DNA of 64,000 nt from NCBI GenBank assembly GCA_964515075.1, contig CAZETE010000004.1, forward strand, positions 3,353 to 67,352, written 5' to 3'. The notes beneath the pieces were generated by a model that saw nothing but the letters and a program-made list of their open reading frames with translations, did no database searches and had not been told where the DNA came from. A program made the translations under genes and the position numbers. Positions 5,120-53,818 of this stretch are shown one piece after another (position 1 is the first letter of the stretch; each line of letters starts with the position of its first letter). The DNA is from an uncultured Actinomycetota bacterium (GTDB lineage: Bacteria > Actinomycetota > Geothermincolia > Geothermincolales > Geothermincolaceae).

Positions 5120-5526
5120 CCGTGCATCGCAAGGTGGTTCTGCATTTCCCCCACGAGCAGGTGGACAAGCCCATCGTCAGCCGCCTGGTCAAGGACTTCG
5201 ACATGGACTTCAACATCCTCAAGGCCCAGATAACCCCGCGGGAGGAGGGCATCCTGGTGCTGGACCTCATCGGGCCGGAGGAGAACTTCAACCGCAGCAT
5301 CCGCTACCTGGAGGAGCAGCGGGTGGTCATCCAGCCCCTGTCGCAGGACATCCGGCGGAACGATGAGCGCTGCACCCACTGCGGCGCCTGCACGGGCGTC
5401 TGCCCCTCCCGGGCGCTCTTCATCGACAGGAAGAGCATGGAGGTCCGCTTCGACGAGGAGGAGTGCGTGGCCTGCGAGCTGTGCGTGCGCGTCTGCCCGT
5501 CGCGGGCCATGGAGGTCCACTACTGA
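5116..5526 (+). CDS. NIL-domain / 2x[4Fe-4S] ferredoxin partner of the DUF39 enzyme (MA1822-like)
   Basis: A 136 aa ORF with an N-terminal NIL domain and two CxxCxxCxxxCP motifs (CTHCGACTGVCP, CVACELCVRVCP). Confidence 0.8.
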   Translation: MTVHRKVVLHFPHEQVDKPIVSRLVKDFDMDFNILKAQITPREEGILVLDLIGPEENFNRSIRYLEEQRVVIQPLSQDIRRNDERCTHCGACTGVCPSRALFIDRKSMEVRFDEEECVACELCVRVCPSRAMEVHY

Positions 5527-5563: not shown

Positions 5564-7003
5564 TCACAGCTGCTCGAAGGCGAGGGAGAGGCGCCGCAGG
5601 CACTCCTCCCGGCCCAGGATGTAGAGGACGTAGGGGAGGGGCGGGCCGGCGGAGCGCCCGGTCAGCGCGATGCGCAGGGGCATGAAGATGTCGCGGGGCT
5701 CGAGCCCCCTCTCCCTGAAGCCCCCGGTGATCTCGGCCAGCAGGACGCGGGCCTCCTCCAGGGCGGCGACCCGTCCCCCCTCCAGGGCGGCCCTGGCCGC
5801 TTCCATCACCTGCACGGCCCCGCGGCCGGAGAGGGCGGCCGCCATGTCCGGCTCCAGCGGGGGGAAGGCCGTGTAGACCTCCAGGTAGCGGGGGAGCTCG
5901 TTCAGCCGCTCCAGGTTGTCGCGGACGGATATGACCATGTCGGAGAAGAGCGGGTGGGCGGCCGCCGGGCCGGCGAAGGGGCGCGCCAGCTCCACCAGGC
6001 GGGCGGGGTCCGCGCGCCGGATGTGCTGCCCGTTGAACCAGTCCAGCTTGTGGGTGTCGAACACCGAGGGGCGGCGGGAGAGGGTCTCCAGCCGGAACTC
6101 CTTCACCAGCTCGGGCAGGGAGAGCACCTCGCGGCCCTCTCCCTCGGGAGACCAGGAGAGCAGCGCCAGGTGGTTGGCCACCGCCTCGGGCAGGTAGCCG
6201 GCGGAGCGGAACTCCCCCAGCGAGGCGGCCCCGTGGCGCTTGGAGAGCTTGGCGCCGTCGGCGCCCAGCAGCAGGGAGTGGTGGCAGAACGCGGGCACCC
6301 GGTAGCCGAGGGACCGGTAGAGCAGCACGTGGCGGGCGGTGTTGGTGAGATGGTCCTCGCCCCGCACCACGTGGGTGATGCCCATGGCGGCGTCGTCCAC
6401 CACCACCGAGAAGTTGAAGCCGGCCGAGCCGTCGGAGCGGAGGACGACGAAGTCCCCGATGACCTCGGAGGAGAAGGAGACCCTGCCGTGCAGCAGGTCC
6501 ACGAACTCGATGGGGCCGGGGGGGACGCGGAAGCGCAGCGCCGGCCTGCGCCCCTCGGCCTTGAGGCGCTCGCGGTCCTGCGCGGTGAGGGCGCGGCAGG
6601 TGCCGTCGTAGAGGGGCATGCGGCCCTCGGCCCGGGCCCGCTCCTTCCCGGCCTCCAGTTCCTCCGGGGTGCAGTAGCAGAAGTAGACCAGCCCCTTCTC
6701 GGCCAGGCGGCGCGCCTCCCGCAAGTAGAGATCGCGGCGTTCGCTCTGGCGGTAGGGGGCGTGGGGCCCGCCGACGTCCGGGCCCTCGTCCCAGTCCAGG
6801 CCCAGCCAGCGCAGGTCGGAGAGGATGGAGGCCTCGCACCCGGCCGAGGAGCGCCGGGGGTCGGTGTCCTCGATGCGCAGGACCATGGAGCCGCCCATGT
6901 GGCGGGCGTAGAGCCAGTTGAAGAGGGCGGTGCGGGCCGAGCCCAGGTGCAGTTCCCCGGTGGGGGAGGGGGCGAATCTGACGCGTATCTCGTCCATGGT
7001 CAC
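5564..7003 (-). CDS. gltX: glutamate--tRNA ligase
   Basis: A 479 aa ORF (MTMDEIRVRFAPSPTGELHLGSARTALFNWLYARH...) with the class I HIGH region and a full anticodon-binding domain. Confidence 0.9.
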   Translation of the reverse strand: MTMDEIRVRFAPSPTGELHLGSARTALFNWLYARHMGGSMVLRIEDTDPRRSSAGCEASILSDLRWLGLDWDEGPDVGGPHAPYRQSERRDLYLREARRLAEKGLVYFCYCTPEELEAGKERARAEGRMPLYDGTCRALTAQDRERLKAEGRRPALRFRVPPGPIEFVDLLHGRVSFSSEVIGDFVVLRSDGSAGFNFSVVVDDAAMGITHVVRGEDHLTNTARHVLLYRSLGYRVPAFCHHSLLLGADGAKLSKRHGAASLGEFRSAGYLPEAVANHLALLSWSPEGEGREVLSLPELVKEFRLETLSRRPSVFDTHKLDWFNGQHIRRADPARLVELARPFAGPAAAHPLFSDMVISVRDNLERLNELPRYLEVYTAFPPLEPDMAAALSGRGAVQVMEAARAALEGGRVAALEEARVLLAEITGGFRERGLEPRDIFMPLRIALTGRSAGPPLPYVLYILGREECLRRLSLAFEQL

Positions 7004-7162
7004 GCTCGGGTCTCCTCGTCTTTACGCTCCGGGCGGGCGCGGTCCAGGTGCATTGTAGCACACGGCCGGGACATCCCGGAGGGCCGGGCGGGCGCGGGGT
7101 TTTGTCCCGGGTAGCGGCTATACTCGGGGCGTTGAGGCGGCCCGGCGGATGGGAGGTCCCGC

Positions 7163-8536
7163 TTGAAGCCCAGGAGCGTTTTCGTCTGCAGCGAGTGCGG
7201 CGGCTCGGCGGTGAAGTGGCTGGGCCGCTGCCCGGAGTGCGGCGAGTACGGCACCATGCAGGAGGAGCGGGCCGCGCCGCCCCCCGGCTCCCCTTCCGGC
7301 CGGGCCCCCCTGCGCTCCGTCCGGCGCGACCCCCTCCCCCTCTCCTCGCTGGAGGGCGGCGGGGAGGAGCGCCGCTCCACCGGCCTGGCCGAGCTCGACC
7401 GGGTGCTGGGCGGGGGCATGGTGCGGGGCTCGGTGGTGCTCGTGGGGGGCGAGCCGGGCATCGGCAAGTCCACCCTGCTGCTGCAGGCGGCCAGCCGGCT
7501 GGCCGGGGCGGGGCGGCGGGTGCTCCTGGTCAGCGGCGAGGAGTCCTGCGCCCAGGTCCGCATGCGGGCGGAGCGCCTGGACGCCGTCTCGCCCGACCTC
7601 TTCCTCTTCTGCGAGACCGGGCTGCCCGAGGTGGTGGAGGCCGTCGAGGGCATGCTGCCCGAGGTGGTGGTGGTCGACTCCATCCAGACCCTGGCCAGCC
7701 CGGAGGTCGCCTCCCCCCCCGGGGGGGTGAGCCAGCTGCGGGAGTGCGCCCTGCGCCTGCAGGCGCTGGCCAAGGAGCGGGGCGTCACCACCTTCCTGGT
7801 GGGCCACGTCACCAAGGACGGCTCGCTGGCCGGGCCGCGCGTGCTCGAGCACATGGTGGACACGGTCCTCTACTTCGAGGGCGAACGCCACGGCTCCGTG
7901 CGCATCCTGCGCGCCTCCAAGAACCGCTTCGGCTCCGTCTCCGAGGTGGGCGTGTTCGAGATGGGCGACTCCGGCCTGCGGGAGGTGGAGGACCCCTCCC
8001 TCCTCTTCAGCCGCCTGCGCCCGGAAGGGGTCTCGGGCGTCGCCCCGGTCATCGCCATGGAGGGCAGGCGCCCCCTGCTGGTGGAGGTGCAGGCGCTGGT
8101 CACCCCCACCTCCCTGCCGGTGCCCAAGCGGGTGGCCTCCGGACTGGACCAGCGGCGCTTCGCCCTCGACCTGGCGGTGCTGGAGAAGCGGGCCCGCCTG
8201 AGCTTCTTCGACCACGACGTCTTCTGCGGCACCGCCGGCGGGCTGCAGGTGGCGGAGCCCGCGTGCGACCTGGCCATCTGCCTGGCGGTGGCCTCCTCCC
8301 GGCTGGACGCGCCCCTGCCCGCGCACCTCGCCTGCTGCGGCGAGGTCAGCCTGGCCGGGGAGGTGCGCCCGGTCTCCCGCACGGAAGAGCGGGTGCGCGA
8401 GGCCCGGCGGCTCGGCTTCTCCGGGATGCTGGTCCCCGAGGCCGGGGAGGCTCCGGAGGGCGGGCGGGGGTTCAGGCTCGAGCGGGTGGGCGACATCCGC
8501 GCCGCCCTGCGCGCCTGCGGCCTGGGCGCCGATTGA
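7163..8536 (+). CDS. radA: DNA repair protein RadA/Sms
   Basis: A 457 aa ORF with an N-terminal zinc ribbon (CSECGGSAVKWLGRCPECGEY), a RecA-like ATPase with Walker A (GEPGIGKST) and a Lon-protease-like C-terminus. Confidence 0.93.
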   Translation: MKPRSVFVCSECGGSAVKWLGRCPECGEYGTMQEERAAPPPGSPSGRAPLRSVRRDPLPLSSLEGGGEERRSTGLAELDRVLGGGMVRGSVVLVGGEPGIGKSTLLLQAASRLAGAGRRVLLVSGEESCAQVRMRAERLDAVSPDLFLFCETGLPEVVEAVEGMLPEVVVVDSIQTLASPEVASPPGGVSQLRECALRLQALAKERGVTTFLVGHVTKDGSLAGPRVLEHMVDTVLYFEGERHGSVRILRASKNRFGSVSEVGVFEMGDSGLREVEDPSLLFSRLRPEGVSGVAPVIAMEGRRPLLVEVQALVTPTSLPVPKRVASGLDQRRFALDLAVLEKRARLSFFDHDVFCGTAGGLQVAEPACDLAICLAVASSRLDAPLPAHLACCGEVSLAGEVRPVSRTEERVREARRLGFSGMLVPEAGEAPEGGRGFRLERVGDIRAALRACGLGAD

Positions 8537-8568
8537 GCTTGCGCGCCCGCGCGGCGCGGCCCGGGGCT

Positions 8569-10083
8569 TCAGGTCTTCCAGCGGACGCCGTCGCGGCGGT
8601 CCTCGAGCTTGATGCCCTTCTCCTCCAGGCGCGCCCGGATGTAGTCGGCGGACTCCCAGTCCCGGGCGGCGCGGGCGCGGGAGCGCAGCTCCACCAGCAG
8701 GTCGATTAGCTCCTCCGCCGGCGGCAGGTGCGCGCGCCCCGGGCGGGCCGCGGGCTCCGCGGCCTCCCGGGCTTCCCCCTCCGCCGCCGCCAGCCCGTAA
8801 GCCCGCACGCCCGCCTCGTCCAGCGGCGAGAAGAGGCCGAACACCCGGCACAGCTTGAGCAGGACGTCCCTGCCCTGCCCGGCCATGATGGTCCCTGCCG
8901 GGGTGGCGAAGAGGGCCTGCTCGTCCAGGTAGGTGTTGAGCTCGCGCGCCAGCTCGAAGACGGCGCCCAGGGCGCGGGCGGTGTTGAAGTCGTCGTCCAT
9001 GGCTTCCTCGAAGCGCCTCTCCACCTCGAGCAGGAACCCGGTGAGCTCCACCTCCCGCTCGGAGCGCGCCGGGGCCGTGATGCCTTCACGGTCGAGGAAC
9101 TCGCCCAGCGCGAAGAGGCAGTTCTCCAGGCGCTCGTAGGCCCGCTTGGCCTCCTCCAGGGCCTCCGGGCCGAAGTCGATGGGGCTGCGGTAGTGGGTCT
9201 GCAGCACCAGCATGCGCAGCGCGTCGGGGGGATACTTCTCCACGATCTCGCGGACGGTGACGATGTTCCCCAGCGACTTGGACATCTTCTCGTCGGAGAT
9301 GTTGACGAAGCCGTTGTGCATCCAGTGGCGGACGAAGGGCGACGAGCCGGAGTAGGCCTCGCTCTGGGCGATCTCGTTCTCGTGGTGGGGGAAGATGAGG
9401 TCCTGGCCGCCCCCGTGGATGTCGAAGCCCATCCCCAGGTGCTCCAGGGACATGGTGGAGCACTCGATGTGCCAGCCGGGGCGCCCCCGGCCCCAGGGGG
9501 AGTCCCAGGAGGGCTCGCCCGGCTTGGCGCTCTTCCACAGGGCGAAGTCGGCGGGGTGGCGCTTGCGCTCGTCCACCTCCACCCGCTCCCCCGCCCGCAT
9601 GTCCTCCAGGGAGCGCTTGGACAGCTTTCCGTACTGCGGGAAGGACTCCACCGAGAAGTAGACGTCCCCGTCCACCTCGTAGGCGTGCCCCTTCCCCACA
9701 AGGGCCGCGATCATCTCCGCCATCTTCTCCACGTAGGCGGTGGCGCGGGGGGTGACGTCGGGCGGCAGGACGTTCAAGGAGACCATGTCCCGCTTGAACT
9801 CCTCCTCGTAGCGGCGGGCCAGCTCCTCCGGGGTGGTGCCCTCCTCCGCGGCGCGGTTGATGATCTTGTCGTCCACGTCGGTGAAGTTCTGCACGTGGGT
9901 CACGGCGTACCCCCTGTGCAGCAGGTAGCGCTTGATGACGTCGAAGGTGAGGTAGGCCCGCCCGTTGCCCGCGTGGATGTAGTTGTAGACGGTGGGGCCG
10001 CAGACGTACATGCCGATGCGGCCCTCCTCCCGCGGCCGGAGCTCTTCCTTGCGGCCGGTCATGGTGTTGTAGGCCTTGATCAC
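8569..10083 (-). CDS. cysS: cysteine--tRNA ligase
   Basis: A 504 aa ORF ([40 protein letters not shown]...) with the KMSKS motif. Confidence 0.93.
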
Positions 10084-27298: not shown

Positions 27299-29188
27299 AT
27301 GGGCCGGGTGCTCGAGGTCGACCTGAGCACCGGCGAAACGCGTACTTTCTCACTATCCGACAGGATGCTGGAGCTCTACGTGGGCAGCAAGGGCCTGGGG
27401 GCCCGGCTGCTCTACGAGCTCCTGCCCCCCGGAGTGGACCCGCTGGGCCCGGAGAACGTCCTCATCGTCACCACCGCGCCCATGACCGGCACCGGGGCGC
27501 CCAGCGCCAACCGTTTCAACGTCACCTCCAAGTCGCCCGCCACCGGCCTCATCGTCAACTCCAACAGCGGCGGCAACTTCGGGGTGCACCTCAAGCGCTC
27601 GGGCTTCGACGCCCTGATCATCCGGGGCAGGGCGCCCAGGCTGAGCTGGCTGAAGATAGAGAACGGCGAGGCCTCCATCGAGGACGCCGCGCACCTGCGG
27701 GGCCTGGATACCGAGGAGACGCAGGAGAAGCTGCCCAAGAAGATGGGGAAGATGGTCATCGGGCCGGCGGGGGAGAACCTGGTCAAGTTCGCTTCCATCT
27801 TCTCCCAGGAGCGGGTGGCGGGCCGCGCCGGCATCGGCACGGTGATGGGCTCCAAGAACCTCAAGGCGGTGGCGGCGGGCGGCGACCGGAAGCCCCGGCT
27901 GCCGGACGAGGAGAAGTACAGGGAGGTCTGCAAGGGATGGCGGGAGGTGCTCAAGAGGCACCCGGCCACCGGGGAGGCCATGCCCGGCTACGGGACGGCC
28001 GGCTTCATCAACGTCTGCAACGCCACCCACACCATGCCCACCCGCAACTTCCAGCAGGGCCAGTTCCGCGCCATCGACGCGGTGAGCGGGGAGACCCTGG
28101 CCGAGACCGAGTTGGTCAAGAACTACGCCTGCTTCGGCTGCGTCATCGCCTGCGGACGCCGGGTGGAGGTGGACGGCAAGGTAGTCAAGGGCCCGGAGTA
28201 CGAGACCCTGGGGCTCTTCGGCCCCAACCTGGGCAACGCCGACCTCAAGGCCATCCTGCGCTGGAACTACGAGTGCGACCTGCTGGGCATGGACGCCATC
28301 AGCGTGGGCAACATCCTCGGCTTCGCCATGGAGGCGGGGGAGAGGGGCCTGCTCCCGACGGACTTGAGGTTCGGCAGGACCGACGGCATCTCCCGGGCCA
28401 TCGAGGACATGGCCTTCAGGCGGGGGCTGGGCGACGAAATGGCCGAGGGGGTGCGCTCCCTCTCCCGCAAGTACGGGGGGGAGGAGTTCGCCATCCAGTC
28501 CAAGGGGCTGGAGATACCCTCCTACGAACCCCGGGGCGCGGTGGGCCACGGGCTGGGATACGCCGTCTCCAACCGCGGCGGCTGCCACCTGGCCGGCGGG
28601 TACATGATCTACCTGGAGGCCAACGGGCCGGTCACCGTCGACCCCCTGGCGACCACCGGCAAGGCCGGATTGACCATCCTCAACCAGACCGTGCTGGAGG
28701 CCGTGAGCAACCTGGGGTGCTGCAACTTCACCGTCTTCACCATGCTCCACCCGCTGCTGCTGGAGTGGAACGCTCGCTCGCGGCTGGTGGCCAAGGCGCT
28801 GTCGAAGGGCTTCCTCTACTCGGGGGACCTGCTGGGCGCGGCCCTGTCCCTGCCCGACTGGACCATGCCCATCCCGGCCCCCTTCAGCATGTTCCCCCAG
28901 GTGAAGGCGCACGCCGTGTGCACCGGCACCAACTTCACCATGGGCAAGTTCCTCGCCCTGGGGCAGCGGGCCAACAACATCGACCGCCTCTTCAATGCGC
29001 GCGAGGGATTCACCGCCAAGGACGACACCCTGCCCCGCCGCTTCACCGACGAGCTGCAGCGCATGGACGAGCCCGGCTCCATCGTGCGCCTGGAGAGGAT
29101 GAAGAAGCGCTACTACCTGCTGCGCGGCTGGAAGGCGGACGGCACGCCCCGGGACTCGACCTTGCGGCGGCTGAAGATAGAGAAGTAG
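27299..29188 (+). CDS. aor: aldehyde:ferredoxin oxidoreductase (tungsten/pterin-dependent AOR family)
   Basis: An AOR N-terminal domain (MGRVLEVDLSTGE...) with conserved (..APSANRFNVTSKSPATG..) and cluster/pterin-binding regions. Alternative in-frame starts exist at GTG 27281 and ATG 27197. Confidence 0.88.
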   Translation: MGRVLEVDLSTGETRTFSLSDRMLELYVGSKGLGARLLYELLPPGVDPLGPENVLIVTTAPMTGTGAPSANRFNVTSKSPATGLIVNSNSGGNFGVHLKRSGFDALIIRGRAPRLSWLKIENGEASIEDAAHLRGLDTEETQEKLPKKMGKMVIGPAGENLVKFASIFSQERVAGRAGIGTVMGSKNLKAVAAGGDRKPRLPDEEKYREVCKGWREVLKRHPATGEAMPGYGTAGFINVCNATHTMPTRNFQQGQFRAIDAVSGETLAETELVKNYACFGCVIACGRRVEVDGKVVKGPEYETLGLFGPNLGNADLKAILRWNYECDLLGMDAISVGNILGFAMEAGERGLLPTDLRFGRTDGISRAIEDMAFRRGLGDEMAEGVRSLSRKYGGEEFAIQSKGLEIPSYEPRGAVGHGLGYAVSNRGGCHLAGGYMIYLEANGPVTVDPLATTGKAGLTILNQTVLEAVSNLGCCNFTVFTMLHPLLLEWNARSRLVAKALSKGFLYSGDLLGAALSLPDWTMPIPAPFSMFPQVKAHAVCTGTNFTMGKFLALGQRANNIDRLFNAREGFTAKDDTLPRRFTDELQRMDEPGSIVRLERMKKRYYLLRGWKADGTPRDSTLRRLKIEK

Positions 29189-29210
29189 GCGTGGCGGCGG
29201 AGGAGGGGCC

Positions 29211-29459
29211 TTGGTAGAGGTGAAGCTCTTCGCCACCCTGCGCCGGGAGGCCGGGGAGAAAGGCTTCGAGACGGACGCTGCTTCGGTGAAAGACGTGCTG
29301 CGCGAGCTGGCCGCCCGCTACGGCCCCTCCTTCACCGGGCAGTTGAAGAAGGCCACCGTCCTGGTGAACGGGCGCAACGCCGCCCACCTCAAGGGCCAGC
29401 GGACCCGCCTCGCCGACGGCGACGTGGTCAGCATCTTCCCGCCCTTGGCCGGAGGGTGA
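29211..29459 (+). CDS. MoaD/ThiS-like ubiquitin-fold sulfur-carrier protein
   Basis: An 82 aa ORF (MVEVKLFATLRREAGEK...DGDVVSIFPPLAGG) ending in a Gly-Gly C-terminus. It lies immediately downstream of aor. Confidence 0.7.
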   Translation: MVEVKLFATLRREAGEKGFETDAASVKDVLRELAARYGPSFTGQLKKATVLVNGRNAAHLKGQRTRLADGDVVSIFPPLAGG

Positions 29460-29492
29460 GGGCGCGGGCGCGGCGCCTCCGCGGCCCCGCGC

Positions 29493-29828
29493 TCAGACCG
29501 GGGTGATGGTGATGCCCCCGGGCCCGTGGTCGTGATCGTGGTCGTGTTCGTGCGAGTGTGTGTGCGTGTGCGAGTGCGAGTGTGTGTGCGCATGCGTGTG
29601 CCCGTGCATCTGGGCCTCCACCAGCTCGGCGACGGCCGCGCGCACGAGTTCCTCCGCCTCGGCCAGCCCCTTGAGGCCCTCCTGCAGCTTGCCCGCAACG
29701 CCGTCCAGGTCGACGTTGGCGGCCAGGGCCGCCCACTGGCGGAGGTGGTCCTGCTCCAGGCGGACGCGGTCGGCCCCCTGCTTGAGGGATACCTTCAGGG
29801 TGGTGAGATCGATGCCTTCCTTACACAT
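29493..29828 (-). CDS. His-rich putative metallochaperone (helical N-domain plus C-terminal His tail; CooJ/Hpn-like)
   Basis: A 111 aa ORF: MCKEGIDLTTLKVSLKQGADRVRLEQDHLRQWAALAANVDLDGVAGKLQEGLKGLAEAEELVRAAVAELVEAQMHGHTHAHTHSHSHTHTHSHEHDHDHDHGPGGITITPV. It carries 16 His in the last 35 residues. The gene is convergent with the aor-moaD pair. Confidence 0.55.
   Translation of the reverse strand: MCKEGIDLTTLKVSLKQGADRVRLEQDHLRQWAALAANVDLDGVAGKLQEGLKGLAEAEELVRAAVAELVEAQMHGHTHAHTHSHSHTHTHSHEHDHDHDHGPGGITITPV
29527..29608. repeat. GT/GTGC-rich low-complexity microsatellite encoding the His-x tail
   Basis: cgtgatcgtggtcgtgttcgtgcgagtgtgtgtgcgtgtgcgagtgcgagtgtgtgtgcgcatgcgtgtgcccgtgcat. This simple-sequence DNA is prone to slippage. 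Confidence 0.5.
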
Positions 29829-29905
29829 GCTCCCCTCTCCCGTCCTTCGTCGGATAATACCTTCGGCGGCGGCTCCGGCGGCGGCCGGAGCGGGCCGCGG
29901 CAGCG

Positions 29906-30823
29906 TCAAACGCAGTCCTCCGGCCGGGCCTTGCCCAGGTCCACCATGGCGCGGCGCAGGATCTCCCTGCCCGCCTCGCTCATGGGGAGCATGGGCAGGC
30001 GCAGGGCGCCGGAGGGCTGCCCCATCCAGGCCAGGGCCTGCTTGAAGCCGGTGGGGTTGGGCTCGCAGAAGAGCGCTTCCACCAGCGGGAGCACCCGCAG
30101 GTGGATGGCGCGCGCCTCCCGCAGCCGGCCGTCCCAGACCAGCCGGCACATCTCCGCGAACTCCCGCCCCAGGACGTGGCCTACCGCGGCGATGCAGCCG
30201 TGCCCGCCCAGGCAGAGGATGAGGTAGGTGAGGGCGTCCTCGCCCGAGTAGACGAAGAGCTCCCGCCCGGCTTCGCCCAGCAGCCTGAAGAGGGACGACG
30301 CGTACTGGATGGCGCCGGAGGCGTCCTTGATGCCCACGATGTTGTCTATGGCGGAAAGACGCACCACCGTCTCCGGCTCGATGCTGCGCCCGGTGCGCGC
30401 GGGGATGTTGTAGAGGATGACGGGGAGGGAGGTGGCTTCGGCCACCGCCAGGAAGTGGCGGTACAGCCCCTCCTGGCTGGGCCGGTTGTAGTAGGGGCTC
30501 ACCTGCAGGGTGGCGTCCACCCCCAGCCTTTCCGCGGCCACGGTCATCTCCACGGCCTCGGCCGTCGAGTTGGAGCCGGTGCCGGCGATGACCGGGACCC
30601 GCCCGGCCGTCTGCTCCAGCACCACCTCGATCACCCGCAGGTGCTCCCGGTGGTCCAGGGTAGAGGACTCGCCGGTGGTGCCGCAGGGGACGATGCCGTC
30701 CGCGCCCTGCTCCTCGATGAGGTAGTCAACCACCCGGCGCAGGGCCTCCGCGTCGATCTCCCCCGAATCCTTGAAGGGGGTGATCACCGGGATGATGCAT
30801 CCCCGCAGGTCCCATCCAGACAA
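29906..30823 (-). CDS. dapA: DapA-family class I aldolase (4-hydroxy-tetrahydrodipicolinate synthase-like)
   Basis: The GTTGESSTL motif is present, and the Schiff-base lysine lies in the ..IVGIKDASG.. context. Confidence 0.7.
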   Translation of the reverse strand: MSGWDLRGCIIPVITPFKDSGEIDAEALRRVVDYLIEEQGADGIVPCGTTGESSTLDHREHLRVIEVVLEQTAGRVPVIAGTGSNSTAEAVEMTVAAERLGVDATLQVSPYYNRPSQEGLYRHFLAVAEATSLPVILYNIPARTGRSIEPETVVRLSAIDNIVGIKDASGAIQYASSLFRLLGEAGRELFVYSGEDALTYLILCLGGHGCIAAVGHVLGREFAEMCRLVWDGRLREARAIHLRVLPLVEALFCEPNPTGFKQALAWMGQPSGALRLPMLPMSEAGREILRRAMVDLGKARPEDCV

Positions 30824-30890
30824 TTACACCAACTCCTGCCTCTCGCTCCGTGGGATTACATGATATCAGAAGCGCGGGCCGCTTGATAAG

Positions 30891-31281: not shown

Positions 31282-32685
31282 GTGCAGCCGCTAATGGATC
31301 TCAAGGACAAGCGAGTGGTGGTCATCGGCACGGGCATCGGAGGCTCGGGCGTCGCCGCCCTGCTGGCCAAGGAGGGCGCGAAGGTGCTGGTGCTGGAGCG
31401 CAACGGCTTCTGGGGAGGCAAGGCTGCCAGCTTCGAGCGCGACGGCTTCATCTACGATACCGGGGTGCACTGGGTGGCCCGGGGCGAGAAGGGCCCGCTG
31501 GGCGAGATCAGCCGCGAAGTCGGAGGGAGCCTGCGCTTCAAGGCGCTGGAGCCGGCCATGAAGCTGATGGTGGGGGGGCGCTCCACCCTGCTCACCCAGG
31601 AACTCGGCAAGCCGGAAGAGCTGGACCGCATCCTTTCCGAGCTGGAGGTGGCCGAGGGGGAGCGGGACAAGGCCAAAGGCTTCTTTCTGGACGTGATGCG
31701 GCCGCGCACCGCGGAGGAACTGGCCGCCCTGGAGGAGGTGCCGGCGACGGAGTACCTGAGCCAGTTCACCTCGGACCCTCAGTTCATGGTGTTCGTCTCC
31801 GGCATCATCGGCATGCACCTGACCATCTCCCCCAAGCAGGCCTCCGCCTCGGAGTTCATCTACTGCTTCGAGACCCAGGCGCGCAACCAGAACCTCTCCT
31901 ACCCCATCGGCGGCATTGGGGCCATACCCAAGGACTACCTGGACGCCCTGGAGCGCGCGGGCGGGGAGGTGCGCTACGATACCGAGGTCGCCCGCGTGGT
32001 GGTGGAGGACGGCAGGGCCACGGGCGTGGAGACCGCCGCGGGCGAGATGATCCCGGCGGACGTGGTCATCAGCAACAACGGCATCAAGGAGTCGGTGGAG
32101 CTGGCCGGGCGGCACAACTTCCCCGACGACTACGTGAAGATGGTGGACAACCTGCGCCTCTCGCTGGCCGCCGTCAGCGTCAAGTACGCCCTCGACGCCG
32201 AGGTGGTCAAGACCCACCTCAATTACTACTTCCCCACCCCCGACAAGATGGACAGCCAGACGGGCATCTTCTTCCCGGTGCCCTCGGCCGCCGACCCCGG
32301 CCTGGCGCCCCCCGGCTGCCAGCTGGTGCTGGCCGGCGCCCCGACCTCACCCAACCTGGACGACCCGGTGGCGGCCGACGCCGCCTGCGAGGAGGTCCTG
32401 GACAAGATCGAGGCCACCATGCAGTACCTCTATCCGGACATCGAGGAGCACGTGGTCTGGAAGCTGCGCACCAACACCCGGTACTGCGCCGACATCTCCG
32501 GGCGCAAGACCGGCGAGGTCATCGGGGTGGCCCAGAACCGCTTCCAGGTGGGCGGAAACCGCCCCGGGAACGTGACCCCGCTTCAGGGCTTCTACCTGGT
32601 GGGCTCGGACGTCGGCGGGCGCGGCGTGGGCATGGAGATGGCCGCGGACAGCGCCCTCATCCTCTGGCGCGAGCTCAAGGCCTGA
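31282..32685 (+). CDS. FAD-dependent oxidoreductase, phytoene-desaturase (CrtI/COG1233) family, paralogue 1
   Basis: An N-terminal Rossmann GxGxxG (VVVIGTGIGGSGVAALLAKEGAKVLVLER) and CrtI-family-like architecture over 467 aa. Confidence 0.8.
   Translation: MQPLMDLKDKRVVVIGTGIGGSGVAALLAKEGAKVLVLERNGFWGGKAASFERDGFIYDTGVHWVARGEKGPLGEISREVGGSLRFKALEPAMKLMVGGRSTLLTQELGKPEELDRILSELEVAEGERDKAKGFFLDVMRPRTAEELAALEEVPATEYLSQFTSDPQFMVFVSGIIGMHLTISPKQASASEFIYCFETQARNQNLSYPIGGIGAIPKDYLDALERAGGEVRYDTEVARVVVEDGRATGVETAAGEMIPADVVISNNGIKESVELAGRHNFPDDYVKMVDNLRLSLAAVSVKYALDAEVVKTHLNYYFPTPDKMDSQTGIFFPVPSAADPGLAPPGCQLVLAGAPTSPNLDDPVAADAACEEVLDKIEATMQYLYPDIEEHVVWKLRTNTRYCADISGRKTGEVIGVAQNRFQVGGNRPGNVTPLQGFYLVGSDVGGRGVGMEMAADSALILWRELKA
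32074..32659 (+). repeat. 586-bp tract identical to 33551..34136 (3' part of paralogue 1)
   Basis: I compared the two copies directly. They match without a mismatch from aacaacggcatcaaggag... to ...gacagcgccctca. A further ~128 bp upstream (31893-32020 vs 33370-33497) is near-identical. Confidence 0.85.
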
Positions 32686-32758: not shown

Positions 32759-34162
32759 GTGATCGAGAAGATGGGGCTTGAGGACAAGCGGATCATCGTC
32801 ATCGGCACGGGTATCGGCGGGGCGGGAGTGGCGGCGCTGCTGGCCGGGGAAGGCGCGAAGGTGCTGGTACTGGAGCGCAACGGCTACCCCGGCGGCAAGG
32901 CCGCCAGCTTCCAGCGCGAGGGCTACACCTACGACACCGGGGTGCACTGGGTGGCCCGGGGCGAGAAGGGCCCGCTGGGAGAGATCAGCCGCAAGGTCGG
33001 GGGAAATCTCCGCTTCAGGGTGATGGAGCCGGCCATCTACGTGGACGTGGGCGGAAGGCGCACCTCCATGACGCAGGACATGGACGACGAGGTAATGCTG
33101 GAGAAGGCCTTCGATGACCTGGGGGTCGCGCCCGAGAACCGCGAGGGGGCCAGGGCCTTCTTCCGGGACCTCCTGAAGCCCCGCTCCGAGGAGGAACTGG
33201 GGGAGCTGGACTCCTACCCGGTGTCCGACTACCTCATGCAGTTCACCGACGACCCCCAGTTCTTCGTGCTGATATCCGGGTTTATCGGCATGTACCTGGT
33301 GATCGCCCCCAGGCAGGCCTCCACCGGCGAGTTCATCCTCTGCTACTCGGAACAGATACGCGAGCGCAACCTCTCCTACCCCATCGGCGGTATTGGGGCC
33401 ATACCCAAGGACTACCTGGACGCCCTGGAGCGCGCGGGCGGCGAGGTGCGCTACGATACCGAGGTCGCCCGCGTGGTGGTGGAGGACGGCAGGGCCGCGG
33501 GCGTGGAGCTGGAGTCCGGGGAGGTCATCTCCGGCGACGTCATCATCAGTAACAACGGCATCAAGGAGTCGGTGGAGCTGGCCGGGCGGCACAACTTCCC
33601 CGACGACTACGTGAAGATGGTGGACAACCTGCGCCTCTCGCTGGCCGCCGTCAGCGTCAAGTACGCCCTCGACGCCGAGGTGGTCAAGACCCACCTCAAT
33701 TACTACTTCCCCACCCCCGACAAGATGGACAGCCAGACGGGCATCTTCTTCCCGGTGCCCTCGGCCGCCGACCCCGGCCTGGCGCCCCCCGGCTGCCAGC
33801 TGGTGCTGGCCGGCGCCCCGACCTCACCCAACCTGGACGACCCGGTGGCGGCCGACGCCGCCTGCGAGGAGGTCCTGGACAAGATCGAGGCCACCATGCA
33901 GTACCTCTATCCGGACATCGAGGAGCACGTGGTCTGGAAGCTGCGCACCAACACCCGGTACTGCGCCGACATCTCCGGGCGCAAGACCGGCGAGGTCATC
34001 GGGGTGGCCCAGAACCGCTTCCAGGTGGGCGGAAACCGCCCCGGGAACGTGACCCCGCTTCAGGGCTTCTACCTGGTGGGCTCGGACGTCGGCGGGCGCG
34101 GCGTGGGCATGGAGATGGCCGCGGACAGCGCCCTCAACCTCTGGCGTCACCTGACGAAATAG
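32759..34162 (+). CDS. FAD-dependent oxidoreductase, phytoene-desaturase (CrtI/COG1233) family, paralogue 2 (tandem duplicate)
   Basis: It is the same length as paralogue 1. The N-terminal halves have diverged while the C-terminal ~195 aa are identical to paralogue 1. Confidence 0.8.
   Translation: MIEKMGLEDKRIIVIGTGIGGAGVAALLAGEGAKVLVLERNGYPGGKAASFQREGYTYDTGVHWVARGEKGPLGEISRKVGGNLRFRVMEPAIYVDVGGRRTSMTQDMDDEVMLEKAFDDLGVAPENREGARAFFRDLLKPRSEEELGELDSYPVSDYLMQFTDDPQFFVLISGFIGMYLVIAPRQASTGEFILCYSEQIRERNLSYPIGGIGAIPKDYLDALERAGGEVRYDTEVARVVVEDGRAAGVELESGEVISGDVIISNNGIKESVELAGRHNFPDDYVKMVDNLRLSLAAVSVKYALDAEVVKTHLNYYFPTPDKMDSQTGIFFPVPSAADPGLAPPGCQLVLAGAPTSPNLDDPVAADAACEEVLDKIEATMQYLYPDIEEHVVWKLRTNTRYCADISGRKTGEVIGVAQNRFQVGGNRPGNVTPLQGFYLVGSDVGGRGVGMEMAADSALNLWRHLTK
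33551..34136 (+). repeat. 586-bp tract identical to 32074..32659 (3' part of paralogue 2)
   Basis: See the paired feature. The identical minus-strand 64-aa ORFs in the track (32226..32420 and 33703..33897) reflect the same duplication. Confidence 0.85.
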
Positions 34163-46298: not shown

Positions 46299-46303
46299 GC
46301 AAT

Positions 46304-47242
46304 TCAAGCGGATGTGCGAGTATCCGCTTTTTCTTTTACATATGCCCTTGCATCGAAACTGAGTCGTATCCTGTAGTGCATGATGGTGACTATTGTCATC
46401 ACTCCGATTTGTGGAATCACAAACATCAGCACAGCAACGGGAATCGACACAACATCCGCCCAAGGATAGACAATCACGAAGGGCAAGCTGATCAGTGCAG
46501 TAATCACACAGACAAGAACAGCATCTTTCTTAAAGCTTATCCGCCTCTCTTTCTTCTTGCGATAGAAATAGTCGGCCAGCGCAACGAGGGAAACGAAGGC
46601 AAGGTAAACTACGACTGCCAATGGATACTCATAAGGCTTAGGCTTATCTAATGATTTGAAATATTCGTCCATTCTTTTATCTTCTTTTTCCAATATATAT
46701 GCCCCAAGACTATCTGCCCAATCAGCCAACTCGTCTTTCCCTTGTTGCTTATAGATTTGACTCAGCAAACCATATCCAGCAGCTTGGCTTGGCTGTCCGT
46801 ATTCAAATGCCAATGCCCTATAAGCAAGGGATTCAGCCTCGTTCAACATCCCATAATCAAGATAGGACATGGCTATAGCAATTAAAGTCGTAAAATCATA
46901 GGGGTTTGCATCAAACGCTTGCTGGAGAATCTCCGATACTCTCTCCCTGTTTCCGATTGAATTGTAGACATCGGCTAGACTTCTATAATCCCAAACAGAG
47001 AAGGACTCCGGGTCAAGCGCATAAGCTTTTTCATAGAGGCTTATAGCTTCTCTTGCCTCTTCTTGGGTAATCGAGTCCAAGCCCTTCTTGGTTATTGAAT
47101 CTGCTTGATCGATCAGCTTCTGTGCTTCGTCTTTCGATTGATCCTGTTGCGCCAATACTCCAACATTTGAGGTGGCCATAGCGGTGCACAGCAAAATAGA
47201 CCCAACGGTCAAGGCCTTCTTCCAAATGCCAAATGCATTCAT
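46304..47242 (-). CDS. secreted/membrane TPR-repeat protein (low-GC, foreign)
   Basis: The start is taken at MNAFGIWKKALTVGSILLCTAMA (signal peptide). It has TPR-like repeats and two C-terminal transmembrane helices. Confidence 0.55.
   Translation of the reverse strand: MNAFGIWKKALTVGSILLCTAMATSNVGVLAQQDQSKDEAQKLIDQADSITKKGLDSITQEEAREAISLYEKAYALDPESFSVWDYRSLADVYNSIGNRERVSEILQQAFDANPYDFTTLIAIAMSYLDYGMLNEAESLAYRALAFEYGQPSQAAGYGLLSQIYKQQGKDELADWADSLGAYILEKEDKRMDEYFKSLDKPKPYEYPLAVVVYLAFVSLVALADYFYRKKKERRISFKKDAVLVCVITALISLPFVIVYPWADVVSIPVAVLMFVIPQIGVMTIVTIMHYRIRLSFDARAYVKEKADTRTSA
46308..46337 (+). terminator. intrinsic terminator GCGGAT-GTGCGAGT-ATCCGC TTTTTCTTTT (for the CAP-domain gene)
   Basis: A 6-bp stem, an 8-nt loop and a 10-nt T-rich run. 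It lies within the 3' end of the convergent TPR gene. Confidence 0.5.
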
Positions 47243-47549
47243 ACTTAGCCTGCTCAGTTTATCGTCCTTTCTTCCCACAAAGCGAATGCCCCCTTTTCGC
47301 AAGTATTCTACCATCCATCAAGCCAGCATTGCTTTTCTACTCATCCCCACCCTCAGCTGGCGATACCCAGTATGGGGATACTGTAATCCTGTTCTGCGTT
47401 CATCAGTCTGGTTCGAACTTCGTCCACAGTGGGGTGCCAAATACAATAGTAAATCAGAGGGTATTACCTTCGTCCTGCTCTTAATGGGCCATGTTCCTTA
47501 TTAATTACCGTGCGATTTGTGTGCTACATGGTCACGCGCAAGGCGAGCC

Positions 47550-47921
47550 TCAGTCGTTTATTGCGTCCAACGCCCGTTGGCGTATCCTGTCTCGCTCTAT
47601 CACGGTGAACATCCCGGTCAAGGTAATGCTCTGCTCTCGAAGTATGCCTGACAAGATCTCTCCGGCTTCGTCCGGAGAAGCCGGAGCGAAGCGGAAGTAG
47701 ACGATGCCGTTGACATTGCGCGCCTTGTGCCGGAAGATCAGCTCTCCGTAATCACGGTCAAAGGTCAGGATGATACGATCCTCTTCGATTGCCCGTTCGA
47801 GCACTTGCCGGTCTGTCGCGCCAGGCATTTCGTCAGCGATACGAAGGACGTCATGACCACTCTCCTCGAGCAGCCTGGTACTTGACCGGGGAATGTTTTC
47901 GTTGGCAAGGAAGTCCATCAC
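47550..47921 (-). CDS. DUF5615 (COG4634) PIN-like putative toxin
   Basis: MMDFLANENIPRSSTRLLEESGHDVL...ILTFDRDYGELIF... is typical of DUF5615. Confidence 0.7.
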   Translation of the reverse strand: MMDFLANENIPRSSTRLLEESGHDVLRIADEMPGATDRQVLERAIEEDRIILTFDRDYGELIFRHKARNVNGIVYFRFAPASPDEAGEILSGILREQSITLTGMFTVIERDRIRQRALDAIND

Positions 47922-48163
47922 ACGGCTTTGGAGTCAAGAGGATAAAGGGATTCCTCACGCATGCATTCGGTCGCGAAGGCGAATATCGCCCGGATGTTCT
48001 CGGCAATAAGATTGGGGTACTCCTCAAGCACCCTGCTTTCCGTCCAGCCCTCGGCGAACAGGCCCAGGATAAATTCGACTGAGAGCCGGGTTCCTTTGAC
48101 CACGGGCTTGCCCATCAATACATCGGGATCAGAGGTAATAGTTTTTCTCCAATCGACTTCCAT
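47918..48163 (-). CDS. DUF433 (COG2442) putative antitoxin
   Basis: ..VLMGKPVVKGTRLSVEFILGLFAEGWTESRVLEEYPNLIAENIRAIFAFA.. Its stop overlaps the DUF5615 start (ATGA). Confidence 0.7.
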   Translation of the reverse strand: MEVDWRKTITSDPDVLMGKPVVKGTRLSVEFILGLFAEGWTESRVLEEYPNLIAENIRAIFAFATECMREESLYPLDSKAV

Positions 48164-48231
48164 CACGACTCCTTCCTTACAGGTATAGCGTACCACAAAG
48201 AAAAGACGGGGTCAGTCCGGGGTCCCGGGGC

Positions 48232-51243: not shown

Positions 51244-52803
51244 TCAGGCGTCGGCCGGGTAGAAGAAGAGCCCCACGGTGCCGGGGCCGGTGTGCGAGCC
51301 GATGACCGGGCCGGTCTCGTTGACGAGGATGCTTCCGGCCTCGCAGCCGAACGCCTCGGCCACCAGCTCCTTCAGGGCCTGGCCGGCCCGCTCGTCGGAG
51401 ACGTGGGTGACGCCCAGCACCGGCCGGCGGCCGCCCAGGTCCTCCTTGGCCAGCTCGACGATGCGCGCCACCGCCTTCTGGGTGCCCCGGGCCTTCTCCT
51501 TGGCGTCGATGGTACCGTGGATGGTCAGGATGGGCTTGACCTTGAGCACGCCGCCCAGGAAGGCCTGCGCCCCCCCGATGCGCCCCCCCTTGCGCAGGTA
51601 CTCCAGGGTGTCCACGGCGAAGTAGACCTTCGACCCGTCGACGACGGCCCGGAGCCGCTCCACGACGGCGTCGAGGTCCGCGCCGTCCCGGATCATCCCG
51701 AGGGCCTCCTCGATGAGCATGTAGATGCCCATGGAGGTGGACATGGAGTCCACCACCTCGATGCGGGTGCCCGCCATCTCGGCGGCGGCGGAGCGCGCCG
51801 ACTCCATGGTGCCGCTGATCCCCCCGGAGATGTGGATGGAGAGGATCTGCTCGTACCTGCCGGCCATCTCCTTGTACGCCTCCGAGAACTCGCCCACGCT
51901 GGGCTGGGAGGTGGTGGGAAACCCGTCGAAGGCCTTGAGTTTTGAGAAGAACTCCTCGTGCGTGAGGTCGACTCCCTCGCAGAAGGACTCGTCCGCGAAG
52001 ATGACCTTCAGCGGGACCACCTTGATATCGCGCTCGCGCACGTAATCCTCGTCCAGGTACGCGGTGCTGTCGGTCACTATGCCAATTTTCCCCGCCAATT
52101 CGCACTCCCCTTTCCTTGGTCCTCGCCTCTCCTCCATCAGGGAACAGGCCGCGCGCGCGGCCATCTGTTCGGCCTCCTTCTTGCTGCGCCCCTCTCCCTG
52201 CCCCGCCTTCTCCCCTCCCAGCCACACCTCGGCGTGGAAGAGCTTAGCGTGGTCCGGGCCCTCGCCCCAGGCGCGGTAGGCGGGCAGCACGCCGCGGGCC
52301 TTGACGGACCACTCCTGCAGCCGGGTCTTGTAGTCGGAGCGCGGGCCCCGGCTCGCCGCCTCCCGCATGCGCTCCCCCAGGACCCTCTCCACCAGCCTGC
52401 CGGCCTCCTCCAGGCCCTTGTCCAGGTAGACCGCCCCGATGAGGGCCTCCAGGGCGTCGGCCAGGACTGATTCCTTGCCCCGGGCGCCGTCCGACTCCGC
52501 CGACGGGCTGAGCAGTATGTGCTCCCCCAGGCCCGCCTCGCCCGCCGCCCGCGCCAGGGCCGCGTCGCTGACCAGCCAGGCCCGGGCCTTGGTGAGGTCG
52601 CCTTCCGCGGCCTCCGGGTCGCTGCGGTAGAGGTAGTCGGTGACCACCATCCCGAGCACCGCGTCGCCGAGGAACTCCAGCCGCTCGAAGGAGCCGGCGG
52701 CCCCGCCTCCCTGCCAGTGGGCGCGCGAGCGGTGGGTCAGGGCCAGCTCCAGCAGCCCCTTGTCGCGGAAGTCCAGCCCCAGGGATGCCTCGAGGTCCCC
52801 CAT
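51244..52803 (-). CDS. rnc: ribonuclease III fused in-frame to a DegV/FakB fatty-acid-binding domain
   Basis: The first 234 aa form a complete RNase III (..ERLEFLGDAVLG.., dsRBD ..KKEAEQMAARAACSLMEE). With no stop codon, a complete DegV follows (..KIGIVTDSTAYLDEDYVRERDIKVVPL....VGLFFYPADA). The internal sequence GGGGAG-N6-TTG at about 52096 could also allow separate DegV initiation. Confidence 0.75.
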   Translation of the reverse strand: MGDLEASLGLDFRDKGLLELALTHRSRAHWQGGGAAGSFERLEFLGDAVLGMVVTDYLYRSDPEAAEGDLTKARAWLVSDAALARAAGEAGLGEHILLSPSAESDGARGKESVLADALEALIGAVYLDKGLEEAGRLVERVLGERMREAASRGPRSDYKTRLQEWSVKARGVLPAYRAWGEGPDHAKLFHAEVWLGGEKAGQGEGRSKKEAEQMAARAACSLMEERRGPRKGECELAGKIGIVTDSTAYLDEDYVRERDIKVVPLKVIFADESFCEGVDLTHEEFFSKLKAFDGFPTTSQPSVGEFSEAYKEMAGRYEQILSIHISGGISGTMESARSAAAEMAGTRIEVVDSMSTSMGIYMLIEEALGMIRDGADLDAVVERLRAVVDGSKVYFAVDTLEYLRKGGRIGGAQAFLGGVLKVKPILTIHGTIDAKEKARGTQKAVARIVELAKEDLGGRRPVLGVTHVSDERAGQALKELVAEAFGCEAGSILVNETGPVIGSHTGPGTVGLFFYPADA

Positions 52804-52807
52804 GCGC

Positions 52808-53818
52808 CTACCCCGTCCCGGCGAGCGCCTCGATGCGGCCCGGCAGCCCGCCGGCGGCCGCCTCCGCCGCCACCTTCAGGGCCCCGGCCACGGCCCTGGC
52901 GCGCGAGCTGCCGTGGCCGATGACGCAGACCCCCTTCACCCCCAGCAGCAGCGCCCCGCCCGCCTCCTCGTGGTCCAGCTCCGCCTTGACCCGGGCCAGG
53001 GCGGGCAGCACCGGCTCGAGCGCCTCCCGCTCCAGCCGGCCCAGGGCGGAGGCGAGGGCCCCGGTGATGAAGGCGGCGGTCCCCTCGATGGTCTTCACGG
53101 CCACGTTGCCGGTGAAGCCGTCGGTCACCACCACGTCCACCCCCTTCCCCGCCAGGTCCCGCCCTTCCACGTTCCCCGAGAAGCTCAGCCGCGGGTCCGC
53201 CTCGAGCAGCGCGTAGGCCGCCTTGGCCAGCTCGCTGCCCTTGCCCGCCTCGCTCCCGATGTTGAGCAGGCCCACCCGGGCGTCCTCCCGACCGGTGAGG
53301 ATGCGCCAGTAAGCCGCGCCCATCAGCGCGAACTGCTTAAGGTGCTCGGGCCGGCAGTCGGCGTTGGCCCCCGCGTCCAGCAGGACCTTGGGCGCGTCGG
53401 CCGGCGGCAGCAGCACCGCCACCGCCGGCCGCTTGATGCCCTTGATGCGCCCCCAGGAGAGCAGGGCGGCGGACATGGCCGCCCCGGTGTTGCCGGCGGA
53501 GACCAGCGCGCCGGCCCTCCCCTCGCGCACGCATTCCGCCCCCCGCACCAGCGAGGAGTCCGGGTGGGCCCTCACCGACCAGGCCCCCTCGTCGGCCATG
53601 CCCACGGCCTCGGAAGCCTCTATTATCTCGAAGGGCGCCGCTCCCAGCAGGGCCACCTGTTCCTCGATGGCCTCCCGCATCCCGCTGAGCACCACCTCCA
53701 GGCCCAGCTGCTCGCGGGCCAGGACGGCTCCCGCCACCGTTTCTGAGGGAGCGTGATCGCCGCCCATGGCGTCCAGGACCACCCGGATGCCGGCGACTGG
53801 TTCCCGCTTTGCAGCCAT
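52808..53818 (-). CDS. plsX: phosphate acyltransferase
   Basis: A 336 aa ORF (..IRVVLDAMGGDHAP.., ..GFTGNVAVKT..). Confidence 0.9.
   Translation of the reverse strand: MAAKREPVAGIRVVLDAMGGDHAPSETVAGAVLAREQLGLEVVLSGMREAIEEQVALLGAAPFEIIEASEAVGMADEGAWSVRAHPDSSLVRGAECVREGRAGALVSAGNTGAAMSAALLSWGRIKGIKRPAVAVLLPPADAPKVLLDAGANADCRPEHLKQFALMGAAYWRILTGREDARVGLLNIGSEAGKGSELAKAAYALLEADPRLSFSGNVEGRDLAGKGVDVVVTDGFTGNVAVKTIEGTAAFITGALASALGRLEREALEPVLPALARVKAELDHEEAGGALLLGVKGVCVIGHGSSRARAVAGALKVAAEAAAGGLPGRIEALAGTG

Follow-up and report, generated by a model that had tools for sequence, protein, structure and literature searches.

A small two-helix protein with a variable histidine tail, encoded opposite an aor–moaD-like gene pair in a Geothermincolia genome, as a candidate binder of nickel, cobalt or zinc

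CooJ, the nickel chaperone of carbon monoxide dehydrogenase (CODH) in Rhodospirillum rubrum, is a protein of 12.6 kDa that carries 16 histidines in its C-terminal domain and binds about four nickel ions, and CooT binds Ni(II) via Cys2, with one nickel per dimer (PMC6006190). Histidine-rich segments are also found in the tails of HypB, UreE, SlyD and Hpn and in loops of ZnuA, ZrgA and RcnA, and the tracts of the HypB, UreE and SlyD type are presumed to serve the low-affinity capture or storage of nickel or zinc. The present analysis concerns a 64,000-nucleotide stretch (the window) from contig CAZETE010000004.1 of an uncultured actinobacterium of the class Geothermincolia and, within it, a convergent open reading frame (ORF) of 111 amino acids, here called X. 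It lies opposite the gene of a ThiS-like (MoaD-like) sulfur carrier, which itself follows aor, the gene of an aldehyde:ferredoxin oxidoreductase (AOR). X belongs to an undescribed family of small proteins and resembles the known small histidine-tailed metal-binding proteins in kind. We tentatively read it, with a probability of roughly 0.45, as a small nickel-, cobalt- or zinc-binding protein with a CooJ-like architecture and a CooT-like chemistry, rather than as an accessory of tungsten handling or of the AOR.

Gene X and its protein family

The three genes that the initial annotation had placed at this locus, an AOR, a MoaD-like carrier and a His-tailed protein, were all recovered as ORFs (Table 1), and X is a real gene. 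Its GC content by codon position (0.77/0.38/0.89) resembles that of its neighbours in a window of about 69% GC, while the overlapping alternative frames lack this pattern. GGAGG motifs equivalent to its Shine-Dalgarno-like site are present in all relatives, and the reading frame is kept across 32 distinct homologues. An artefact of frame in GC-rich DNA is thus ruled out by codon-position GC, ribosome-binding site and conservation. Moreover, an in-frame stop lies 1–6 codons upstream in several homologues and leaves no other start, so that the Met-Cys beginning of the protein is forced.

Table 1. Positions of aor, the sulfur-carrier gene, X, dapA and their associated elements in the window (AF2, AlphaFold2; pI, isoelectric point).
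Feature	Position	Strand	Description and basis
aor, aldehyde:ferredoxin oxidoreductase (AOR family)	27299–29188	+	629 aa; Pfam AFOR_N + AFOR_C; 1AOR match
MoaD/ThiS-type beta-grasp sulfur-carrier gene	29211–29459	+	82 aa; C-terminal Gly-Gly; TTG start
Spacer between the convergent stops of the ThiS-like gene and X	29460–29492	.	33 bp; GC-rich; sequence
Gene X, unnamed family	29493–29828	-	111 aa; 12.07 kDa; acidic, pI 5.96; ORF
C-terminal motif of X, G-G-I-T-I-T-P-V, residues 104–111	29496–29519	-	alignments; AF2 disordered
His tract of X, (H-x)13-H, residues 75–101, HGHTHAHTHSHSHTHTHSHEHDHDHDH	29526–29606	-	translation, codons
Helical hairpin of X, residues 8–74 (helix 8–38, turn, helix 42 onward)	29607–29807	-	
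N-terminal motif of X, M-C-K-E-G-I-D, residues 1–7	29808–29828	-	alignments; AF2 unstructured
Shine-Dalgarno-like GGGAGAGGGGAG, just 5' of the X ATG	29830–29841	-	sequence
dapA, 4-hydroxy-tetrahydrodipicolinate synthase	29906–30823	-	305 aa; 77 bp upstream of X, same strand
Sigma-70-like promoter match upstream of dapA	30860–30889	-	consensus match only

X matched no family in Pfam or NCBIfam, nor was any Pfam family matched by ten members of its family that were tested, and a profile of 13 homologues run against all PDB chains (E<=10) returned only noise from His tags and designed proteins. A sub-threshold Pfam match to ZrgA (19 bits vs 27.4) and the JGI label "Zn2+ transport" on one relative (P0002) are due to histidine composition. 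The family is also sparse: 13 relatives of X were found among 5.8 billion clusters (90% clustering), and a HMMER profile scan of 1.84 billion representatives gave 17 clusters only (50% identity, E<1e-3). A pattern scan for further loci was run with an 18-sequence alignment, and in total 56 loci were collected, their neighbours mapped by tblastn, and the set dereplicated to 32 lineages. Relatives include Candidatus Geothermincola secundus (Actinomycetota, Geothermincolia), the assemblies that carry X include GCA_936416865.1, GCA_015711715.1 and GCA_030017835.1, and X seems to belong to a small undescribed family that occurs mainly in deep-branching Actinomycetota.

The helical domain that had been proposed for X is borne out by AlphaFold2, which models helices at residues 8–38 and 42–79, with pLDDT above 90 over residues 11–70, followed by a disordered tail. 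A homologue that lacks the histidines gives the same hairpin at pLDDT 96–98, again with residues 1–7 and the C-terminus disordered. A hairpin fold places the two termini at one and the same end of the molecule. Conserved residues in the helices are K12, W32, A34, N38 and L69, of which Lys12 is the sole residue invariant across the whole superfamily alignment; the hairpin has a single histidine, H28, within DHLRQW. The two ends are conserved as well. M1, C2 and G5 are invariant and D7 nearly so in the subfamily alignments (consensus M1-C2-x-E-G-x-D), and Cys2, the one cysteine of X, is present without exception in the 21 subfamily members aligned and in the full set of 31 distinct, complete sequences derived from the loci. 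At the other end, G-[VI]-T-[IV]-T-P-[VLM] is found in nearly all subfamily members, whether or not they have a His tract. The N-terminal 74 residues taken by themselves have a pI of 4.8. A secreted protein or lipoprotein was considered and rejected, because the N-terminus MCKEGIDL, read from the sequence, has no signal peptide.

A possible metal site at the N-terminus and a variable histidine tract

The family has one clearly independent genomic context, and it is this context that connects X with metal genes. In L022 (GCA_030017835.1, 52–55% GC), the X homologue P0024 (hhalign probability 97.6%, E 4e-12, end-to-end alignment) lies between cooT and cbiM-cbiN-like-cbiQ-cbiO, all on one strand and with gaps of 74–87 bp. 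The cluster occupies positions 5729–8815, with genes for thioredoxin reductase, thioredoxin and a DUF3842 protein upstream and, downstream and next to the transporter, an adenosylcobalamin (B12)-dependent ribonucleotide reductase (RNR). Both CooT and the X homologue begin with Met-Cys there, and X is found without AOR, ThiS or dapA; in L023, likewise, X occurs without dapA.

It is known that methionine is removed when cysteine follows, leaving an N-terminal aminothiol. After such processing Cys2 of X would offer a free amine and a thiolate, the chemistry that CooT uses for Ni(II). The likeness to CooT (PF10133) lies in this Met-Cys N-terminus and in the place of cooT directly upstream of the X homologue in L022; CooT, however, is a 7-kDa all-beta protein, whereas X is a helical hairpin with no match to PF10133. 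An N-terminal amine and a cysteine also serve RcnR and FrmR in sensing nickel and cobalt or formaldehyde. Proteins of the RcnR/CsoR/FrmR type have three helices against two in X, which gives no match to PF02583. A DNA-binding regulator of the CsoR/RcnR type was rejected on this ground and on the acidity of X, which makes DNA binding unlikely.

The comparison with CooJ concerns layout. Both proteins are of similar size and consist of a helical part followed by a flexible His-rich tail, with 14 histidines in X and 16 in CooJ. On the other hand, X has an invariant Cys2 and a strand motif after the tail, and most members of its family have no His tail at all. CooJ is reportedly a coiled-coil dimer with an N-terminal nickel site of the form H-(W/F)-x2-H-x3-H in its 2019 structure paper, and this motif was not found in the hairpin of X. 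Pfam scans covered 50 genes or ORFs of the 64 kb outside the intervals 37.7–39.8, 46.2–48.2 and 56.9–58.2 kb, and these scanned parts hold no cooS, cooC or cooF; no CODH or CooC was seen at any relative's locus either. More widely, no CODH, hydrogenase, urease, transporter of nickel, cobalt, tungsten or molybdenum, or gene of molybdenum cofactor (Moco) biosynthesis is among the scanned genes, so that the earlier remark that no hydrogenase or CODH lies nearby holds for the parts scanned. Searches of Pfam, NCBIfam and the PDB found no sequence or profile homology of X to CooJ, Hpn, HypB, UreE or any other named protein. The likeness to CooJ, HypB or Hpn that had been proposed therefore stands for the CooJ-like architecture (a hairpin plus a flexible His tail, 12 kDa) and fails as homology; by analogy X may be called CooJ-like in layout, which is not a family assignment. 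With the tails and loops of HypB, UreE, SlyD, Hpn, ZnuA, ZrgA and RcnA it shares the alternation of histidine with small or acidic residues and the variable length, but the tracts of HypB, UreE, SlyD and the others are attached to GTPase, PPIase, solute-binding or transporter domains, none of which is detected in X by Pfam or NCBIfam. Hpn differs in another way: about 45% of it is histidine, with Cys pairs or Gln runs and no folded domain, while X has 13.5% histidine (15 of 111 residues), one cysteine and a folded hairpin of 70 residues. As for the hairpin itself, Rop/Rom is built on one of similar length whose dimer is a four-helix bundle; Foldseek target TM-scores were 0.8–0.86, a generic resemblance (E>0.7).

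The (H-x)n run that first drew attention to X is real, but it was overcounted: it holds 14 histidines in 27 residues, not 16 in 35, and lies within a 37-residue segment after Met74, the whole protein having 15. The underlying DNA is a tandem repeat with periods of 6, 12 and 24 at 29525–29601. The His run is beyond chance, and its origin is explained by this repeat. The sole weak match to Rfam, mir-297, is the GT-rich DNA of the tract. Among relatives the length varies from 0 to 14 histidines, the close ones having 14, 13, 11 and 8, and such change in H-x units is what replication slippage would give. About 10 of 32 distinct locus sequences have a run of 3–14 histidines; the other 22 distinct family members have a linker of Gly, Pro, Ser and Thr instead, such as QVQGPSSTGTG or QMGGGPEGSG.

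The x residues and the codons differ between lineages and the H-x alternation is retained. Short runs open with Q-M-H-G-H in the deep lineages L017 and L032, with Q-T-H-G-H in P0014 and with Q-M-E-H-H in L020. A distant subgroup without Cys2 has a His-rich tail at the same position in 7/7 members, and four of these (P0023, P0026, P0027 and P0029) also have N-termini rich in His, Asp and Glu, e.g. MSHHDD and MDHHNHED. The retained alternation and the recurrence of His tails in distant members argue for selection on histidine rather than pure slippage. On a neighbour-joining tree of DapA the His-bearing lineages are basal, so that the tract looks ancestral, and in the simplest history a short His run was ancestral, was lost about twice and grew longer in the clade of the window. 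The long tract is a lineage-specific elaboration. The lesson is that the conspicuous His tail is the part of X that is least conserved, and the family, in which an otherwise conserved scaffold has gained a His tract, lengthened it by slippage or lost it, is a natural series useful for learning what such tails contribute.

Taken together, the preferred reading would run as follows. Two separate units, aor–moaD-like and dapA–X, meet tail to tail, and the position of X opposite the former would be inherited synteny. X would be a small cytoplasmic two-helix hairpin, probably forming a four-helix dimer of the Rop or CooJ kind, that may bind a divalent cation (Ni, Co or Zn) at its N-terminal Cys site, with the first histidines after helix 2 possibly assisting where they are present. 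In this lineage the linker would have been enlarged by CAC-NNN repeat slippage into the 14-His (H-x)n tract, adding low-affinity capture or buffering as presumed for the tails of CooJ, HypB, UreE and SlyD, and the C-terminal strand G-V-T-I-T-P-V might dock on a partner. If X does bind nickel or cobalt via an N-terminal cysteine on a hairpin, this would be an independent invention of the solution found in CooT and CooJ, and X would be a candidate general buffer of nickel and cobalt in these organisms. The Geothermincola group is reported to carry the Wood-Ljungdahl pathway, which entails a need for nickel.

Genomic neighbourhood and the weighing of explanations

The most constant neighbour of X is dapA, which in 28 of the 30 lineages with enough flank is the next gene upstream, on the strand of X and at gaps of roughly 20–280 bp. 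In the window a sigma-70-like promoter match was found upstream of dapA and none between dapA and X, and the two are probably co-transcribed. The gene passes the TIGR00674 equivalog with 321.7 bits (cut-off 206); an alternative in which this DHDPS-family gene would be an aldolase of the KDG type feeding the AOR was rejected, since it satisfies the dapA model and neither the HpaI nor the KDG-aldolase one. Downstream of X, a convergent ThiS-like gene is present in 26 of 28 lineages. Beside it, in the 22 lineages where this could be read, stands a type 1 AOR (63–88% identical to that of the window) in 8, a type 2 paralogue of about 700 amino acids (31–36% identical) in 11, and no AOR in 3. X thus faces ThiS-AOR in 19 of 22 lineages, among them the deep lineages L017, L020 and L024 with wholly different outer flanks. 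There are, though, lineages in which the AOR is lost and X is kept (L012, L013 and L027), with ThiS still beside X in L012 and L027, and in the nearest relatives of the window (L007, L008, L014 and L015) X and ThiS-AOR are 3.5–6 kb apart with unrelated genes between them. In L007 and L008 the interval includes a gene for a group II intron reverse transcriptase, besides those of a DUF5719 and a TIG/PD40 protein. A gene for a receiver-only response regulator (120–126 amino acids) follows X at 33–119 bp in L007, L009, L014, L015, L030 and L032 (8341–8718 in L007, 8287–8655 in L009) and has been lost from the window. A divergent amine-oxidase gene upstream of dapA is widely conserved too, so that the block as a whole behaves as inherited synteny in one lineage. 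A ThiF gene was noted 3.6 kb from dapA in L017. The gene contexts of the Cys-less relatives P0026, P0027 and P0020 are uninformative, and two distant Cys-less relatives adjoin DegV genes.

The initial annotation had supposed that the His-rich protein may serve a different metal, and had named conservation beside aor as a check. The gene is indeed usually there, but its richness in histidine is not conserved (22 of 32 members have no tract), and a link to tungsten, to the AOR or to a different metal finds no support. The conserved partner is dapA, X persists where the AOR is gone and poly-His is no ligand of tungstate. The explanation that X serves the neighbouring AOR as a dedicated accessory, delivering or storing tungsten or another ion, is quite unlikely. 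It draws on the frequent position opposite ThiS-AOR, deep lineages included, and on the fact that the six lineages in which a His tract goes with a known AOR all have type 1 (6 of the 8 type 1 lineages), against none of 11 with type 2. But this correlation amounts to about two events on the DapA tree, with L009 and L046, where a type 1 AOR is accompanied by a His-less X, as exceptions, and it was set aside as functional evidence. X and aor are convergent and hence not co-transcribed; they are well separated in the four nearest relatives; X is kept despite loss of the AOR or its exchange for a paralogue of 31–36% identity; and L022 has X with neither AOR nor ThiS. As a matter of general chemistry, tungsten enters as tungstate, and poly-His binds cations of Ni, Co, Zn and Cu and not oxyanions of this kind. 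Glu332, reportedly a ligand of the inter-subunit metal site in Pyrococcus furiosus AOR, aligns on our reading to an arginine here, which also counts against an accessory role.

A different partner on the same side would be the ubiquitin-like protein (Ubl) of ThiS/MoaD type, with X as a persulfide relay through its cysteine, as an adaptor docking through the strand motif, or as a covalent target at Lys12. After dapA, no neighbour is as constant as ThiS, which is kept without AOR in two lineages, X has one invariant Cys and a Lys12 invariant superfamily-wide, its short hydrophobic strand could conceivably pair with the beta-grasp sheet, and in archaea Ubls of the MoaD type serve as sulfur carriers and are conjugated to proteins as well (PMC11323500). 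Yet where the block is split (L007, L014, L015), ThiS stays with the AOR and not with X, and neither L022 nor the Cys-less subgroup has ThiS as a neighbour. No E1 (ThiF/MoeB), MoaE or JAMM gene was found among the scanned genes of the window, although E1 and MoaE may lie elsewhere in the genome. In known persulfide carriers the cysteine is not at residue 2, and simple inheritance of the gene order within a single actinobacterial lineage would suffice to explain the block; such a partnership is unlikely. A wider version, in which the conserved core of X (aminothiol, Lys12 and C-terminal strand) is not primarily a metal site but a partner of the Ubl carrier or of aldehyde metabolism, be it as persulfide relay, covalent acceptor or thiazolidine-forming aldehyde sensor, is improbable to much the same degree. 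If true, it would explain why dapA–X stays opposite ThiS-AOR though X is only 32–44% identical, and an aldehyde sensor would link the DapA substrate aspartate semialdehyde with the AOR.

The constancy of dapA suggests another possibility, namely that X is a regulatory or stabilizing partner of DapA, encoded on the same transcript, whose flexible linker has grown into the His tract as low-complexity sequence that is neutral to selection. The promoter-like site upstream of dapA with none between the genes fits this, as does the nature of the tract, a tandem repeat of variable length that most lineages do without. However, DapA is not known to have a protein partner, X is found without dapA in L022 and L023, and the H-x alternation is kept while His tails recur in distant, unrelated sequences, so that we regard this explanation as doubtful. 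That X is a phosphotransfer or adaptor partner of the response regulator encoded after it in six lineages is very unlikely indeed: the hairpin does resemble the helix pair of DHp or Spo0B, with H28 in helix 1, but this histidine is not conserved (P0008 and P0019 have Gln, P0015 has Ala, P0021 Phe and P0024 Gly), the window and most of the deeper lineages lack the receiver gene, and there is no kinase gene nearby. A phosphotransfer role was rejected on the variation at H28.

To return to X as a small metal-binding protein, several points weigh against it. Most members have no His tract, and any metal site in these would have Cys2 alone to rely on. The link to metal genes comes only from L022, a single contig, and even there the identity of the metal is ambiguous, because the transporter scores below every equivalog cut-off and the neighbouring RNR is B12-dependent. 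The dominant context, with dapA upstream and ThiS-AOR opposite, makes no evident sense in terms of metals and is left unexplained by the model. Both termini of X are of low confidence in AlphaFold2, the dimer and the metal site are inferred, and the contexts of the Cys-less subgroup, with their DegV neighbours, do not help to decide.

The AOR and MoaD-like pair and other features of the window

A MoaD gene strictly adjacent to aor has been described in scattered archaea and bacteria, including Pyrococcus, and a role in making the molybdopterin of the tungsten cofactor was proposed for it (Iyer, Burroughs and Aravind 2006, PMC1779556). The same layout is found in tk1066/tk1065 of T. kodakarensis (PMC11323500) and in aorD/E of Aromatoleum (PMC6365974). 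The pair in the window is an instance of this known and widespread arrangement, as the initial annotation had said, and adds nothing new to it: aor is followed, 22 bp past its stop and on the same strand, by a small gene of the MoaD family whose product ends in PPLAGG. Two differences from the published cases can be named. The pair has no gene for MoeB, MoaE, a radical-SAM (cmo) protein or a ferredoxin beside it, and in sister lineages the partner of the same MoaD-like orthologue can be either of two AOR paralogues. The type 2 AOR (about 690–709 amino acids) occurs in a large sister clade, in L024, L033, L036, L037, L040, L043, L045, L049 and L052–L054 (e.g. 6629–8758 in L049), and it looks as if one AOR type has been displaced by the other in place, beside a conserved MoaD-like gene.

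The AOR itself matches PF02730 (AFOR_N, 1e-70) and PF01314 (AFOR_C, 3e-115), both at full length, and its top PDB relative is the tungsten AOR of P. furiosus, 1AOR (436 bits, E 2e-129). The four cysteines of the [4Fe-4S] cluster are kept in the alignment, CfgCviaC standing for CyaCpigC of 1AOR, with the distal one in lgcCnf opposite aglClf. The assignment to a tungsten-type AOR is upheld to the extent that the product is, by these comparisons, evidently a canonical AOR-family enzyme nearest to that of P. furiosus; tungsten rather than molybdenum in the cofactor is inferred from that nearness only. Between two aligned blocks, residues ~482–541 (window positions 28742–28921) form an insertion: the stretch is about 60 residues long, against about 13 in P. 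furiosus AOR. The MoaD-like protein matches Pfam ThiS (PF02597, 1.3e-16), moaD_arch (TIGR01687) at 67 bits against a cut-off of 49.5, and SAMP1 at 56.6 bits; its PDB relatives include MoaD 2m19 and a SAMP1 homologue. Its gene adjoins an AOR-family gene in 19 of the 22 relatives with enough flank, and the carrier presumably provides the dithiolene sulfurs of the pyranopterin cofactor of the AOR. No tup, wtp or mod genes were found among the scanned genes of the window, Rfam gave neither a Moco nor a lysine riboswitch in the vicinity of aor or dapA, and the 33 bp between the stops of X and the ThiS-like gene, which lie on opposite strands, contain no canonical T-tailed terminator.

The window, which has no tRNA genes, shows several further features. 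A low-GC island at 46300–48230 (39–58% against ~69%), with all of its ORFs on the minus strand, was probably acquired horizontally; it encodes a TPR-like protein of 336 amino acids with membrane segments (46304–47314), and two small overlapping ORFs (47550–47921 and 47918–48196) that look like a toxin–antitoxin pair. On the plus strand, 31282–32685 and 32759–34162 are tandem paralogues resembling FAD amine oxidases and phytoene desaturases. Their C-terminal ~270 residues are near-identical and their N-terminal halves differ, which points to a recent duplication or to gene conversion; the copy number in relatives is one or two. At 51244–52875 (minus strand), a stop-to-stop interval of 543 codons contains RNase III with its dsRBD (residues 38–245) and DegV (263–540), and could be either a fusion or two adjacent genes. 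Finally, at 3902–5526 on the plus strand, a COG1900 HcyBio gene is followed by that of a NIL-domain ferredoxin, i.e. the methanogen-type route from aspartate semialdehyde to homocysteine, in an actinobacterial genome.

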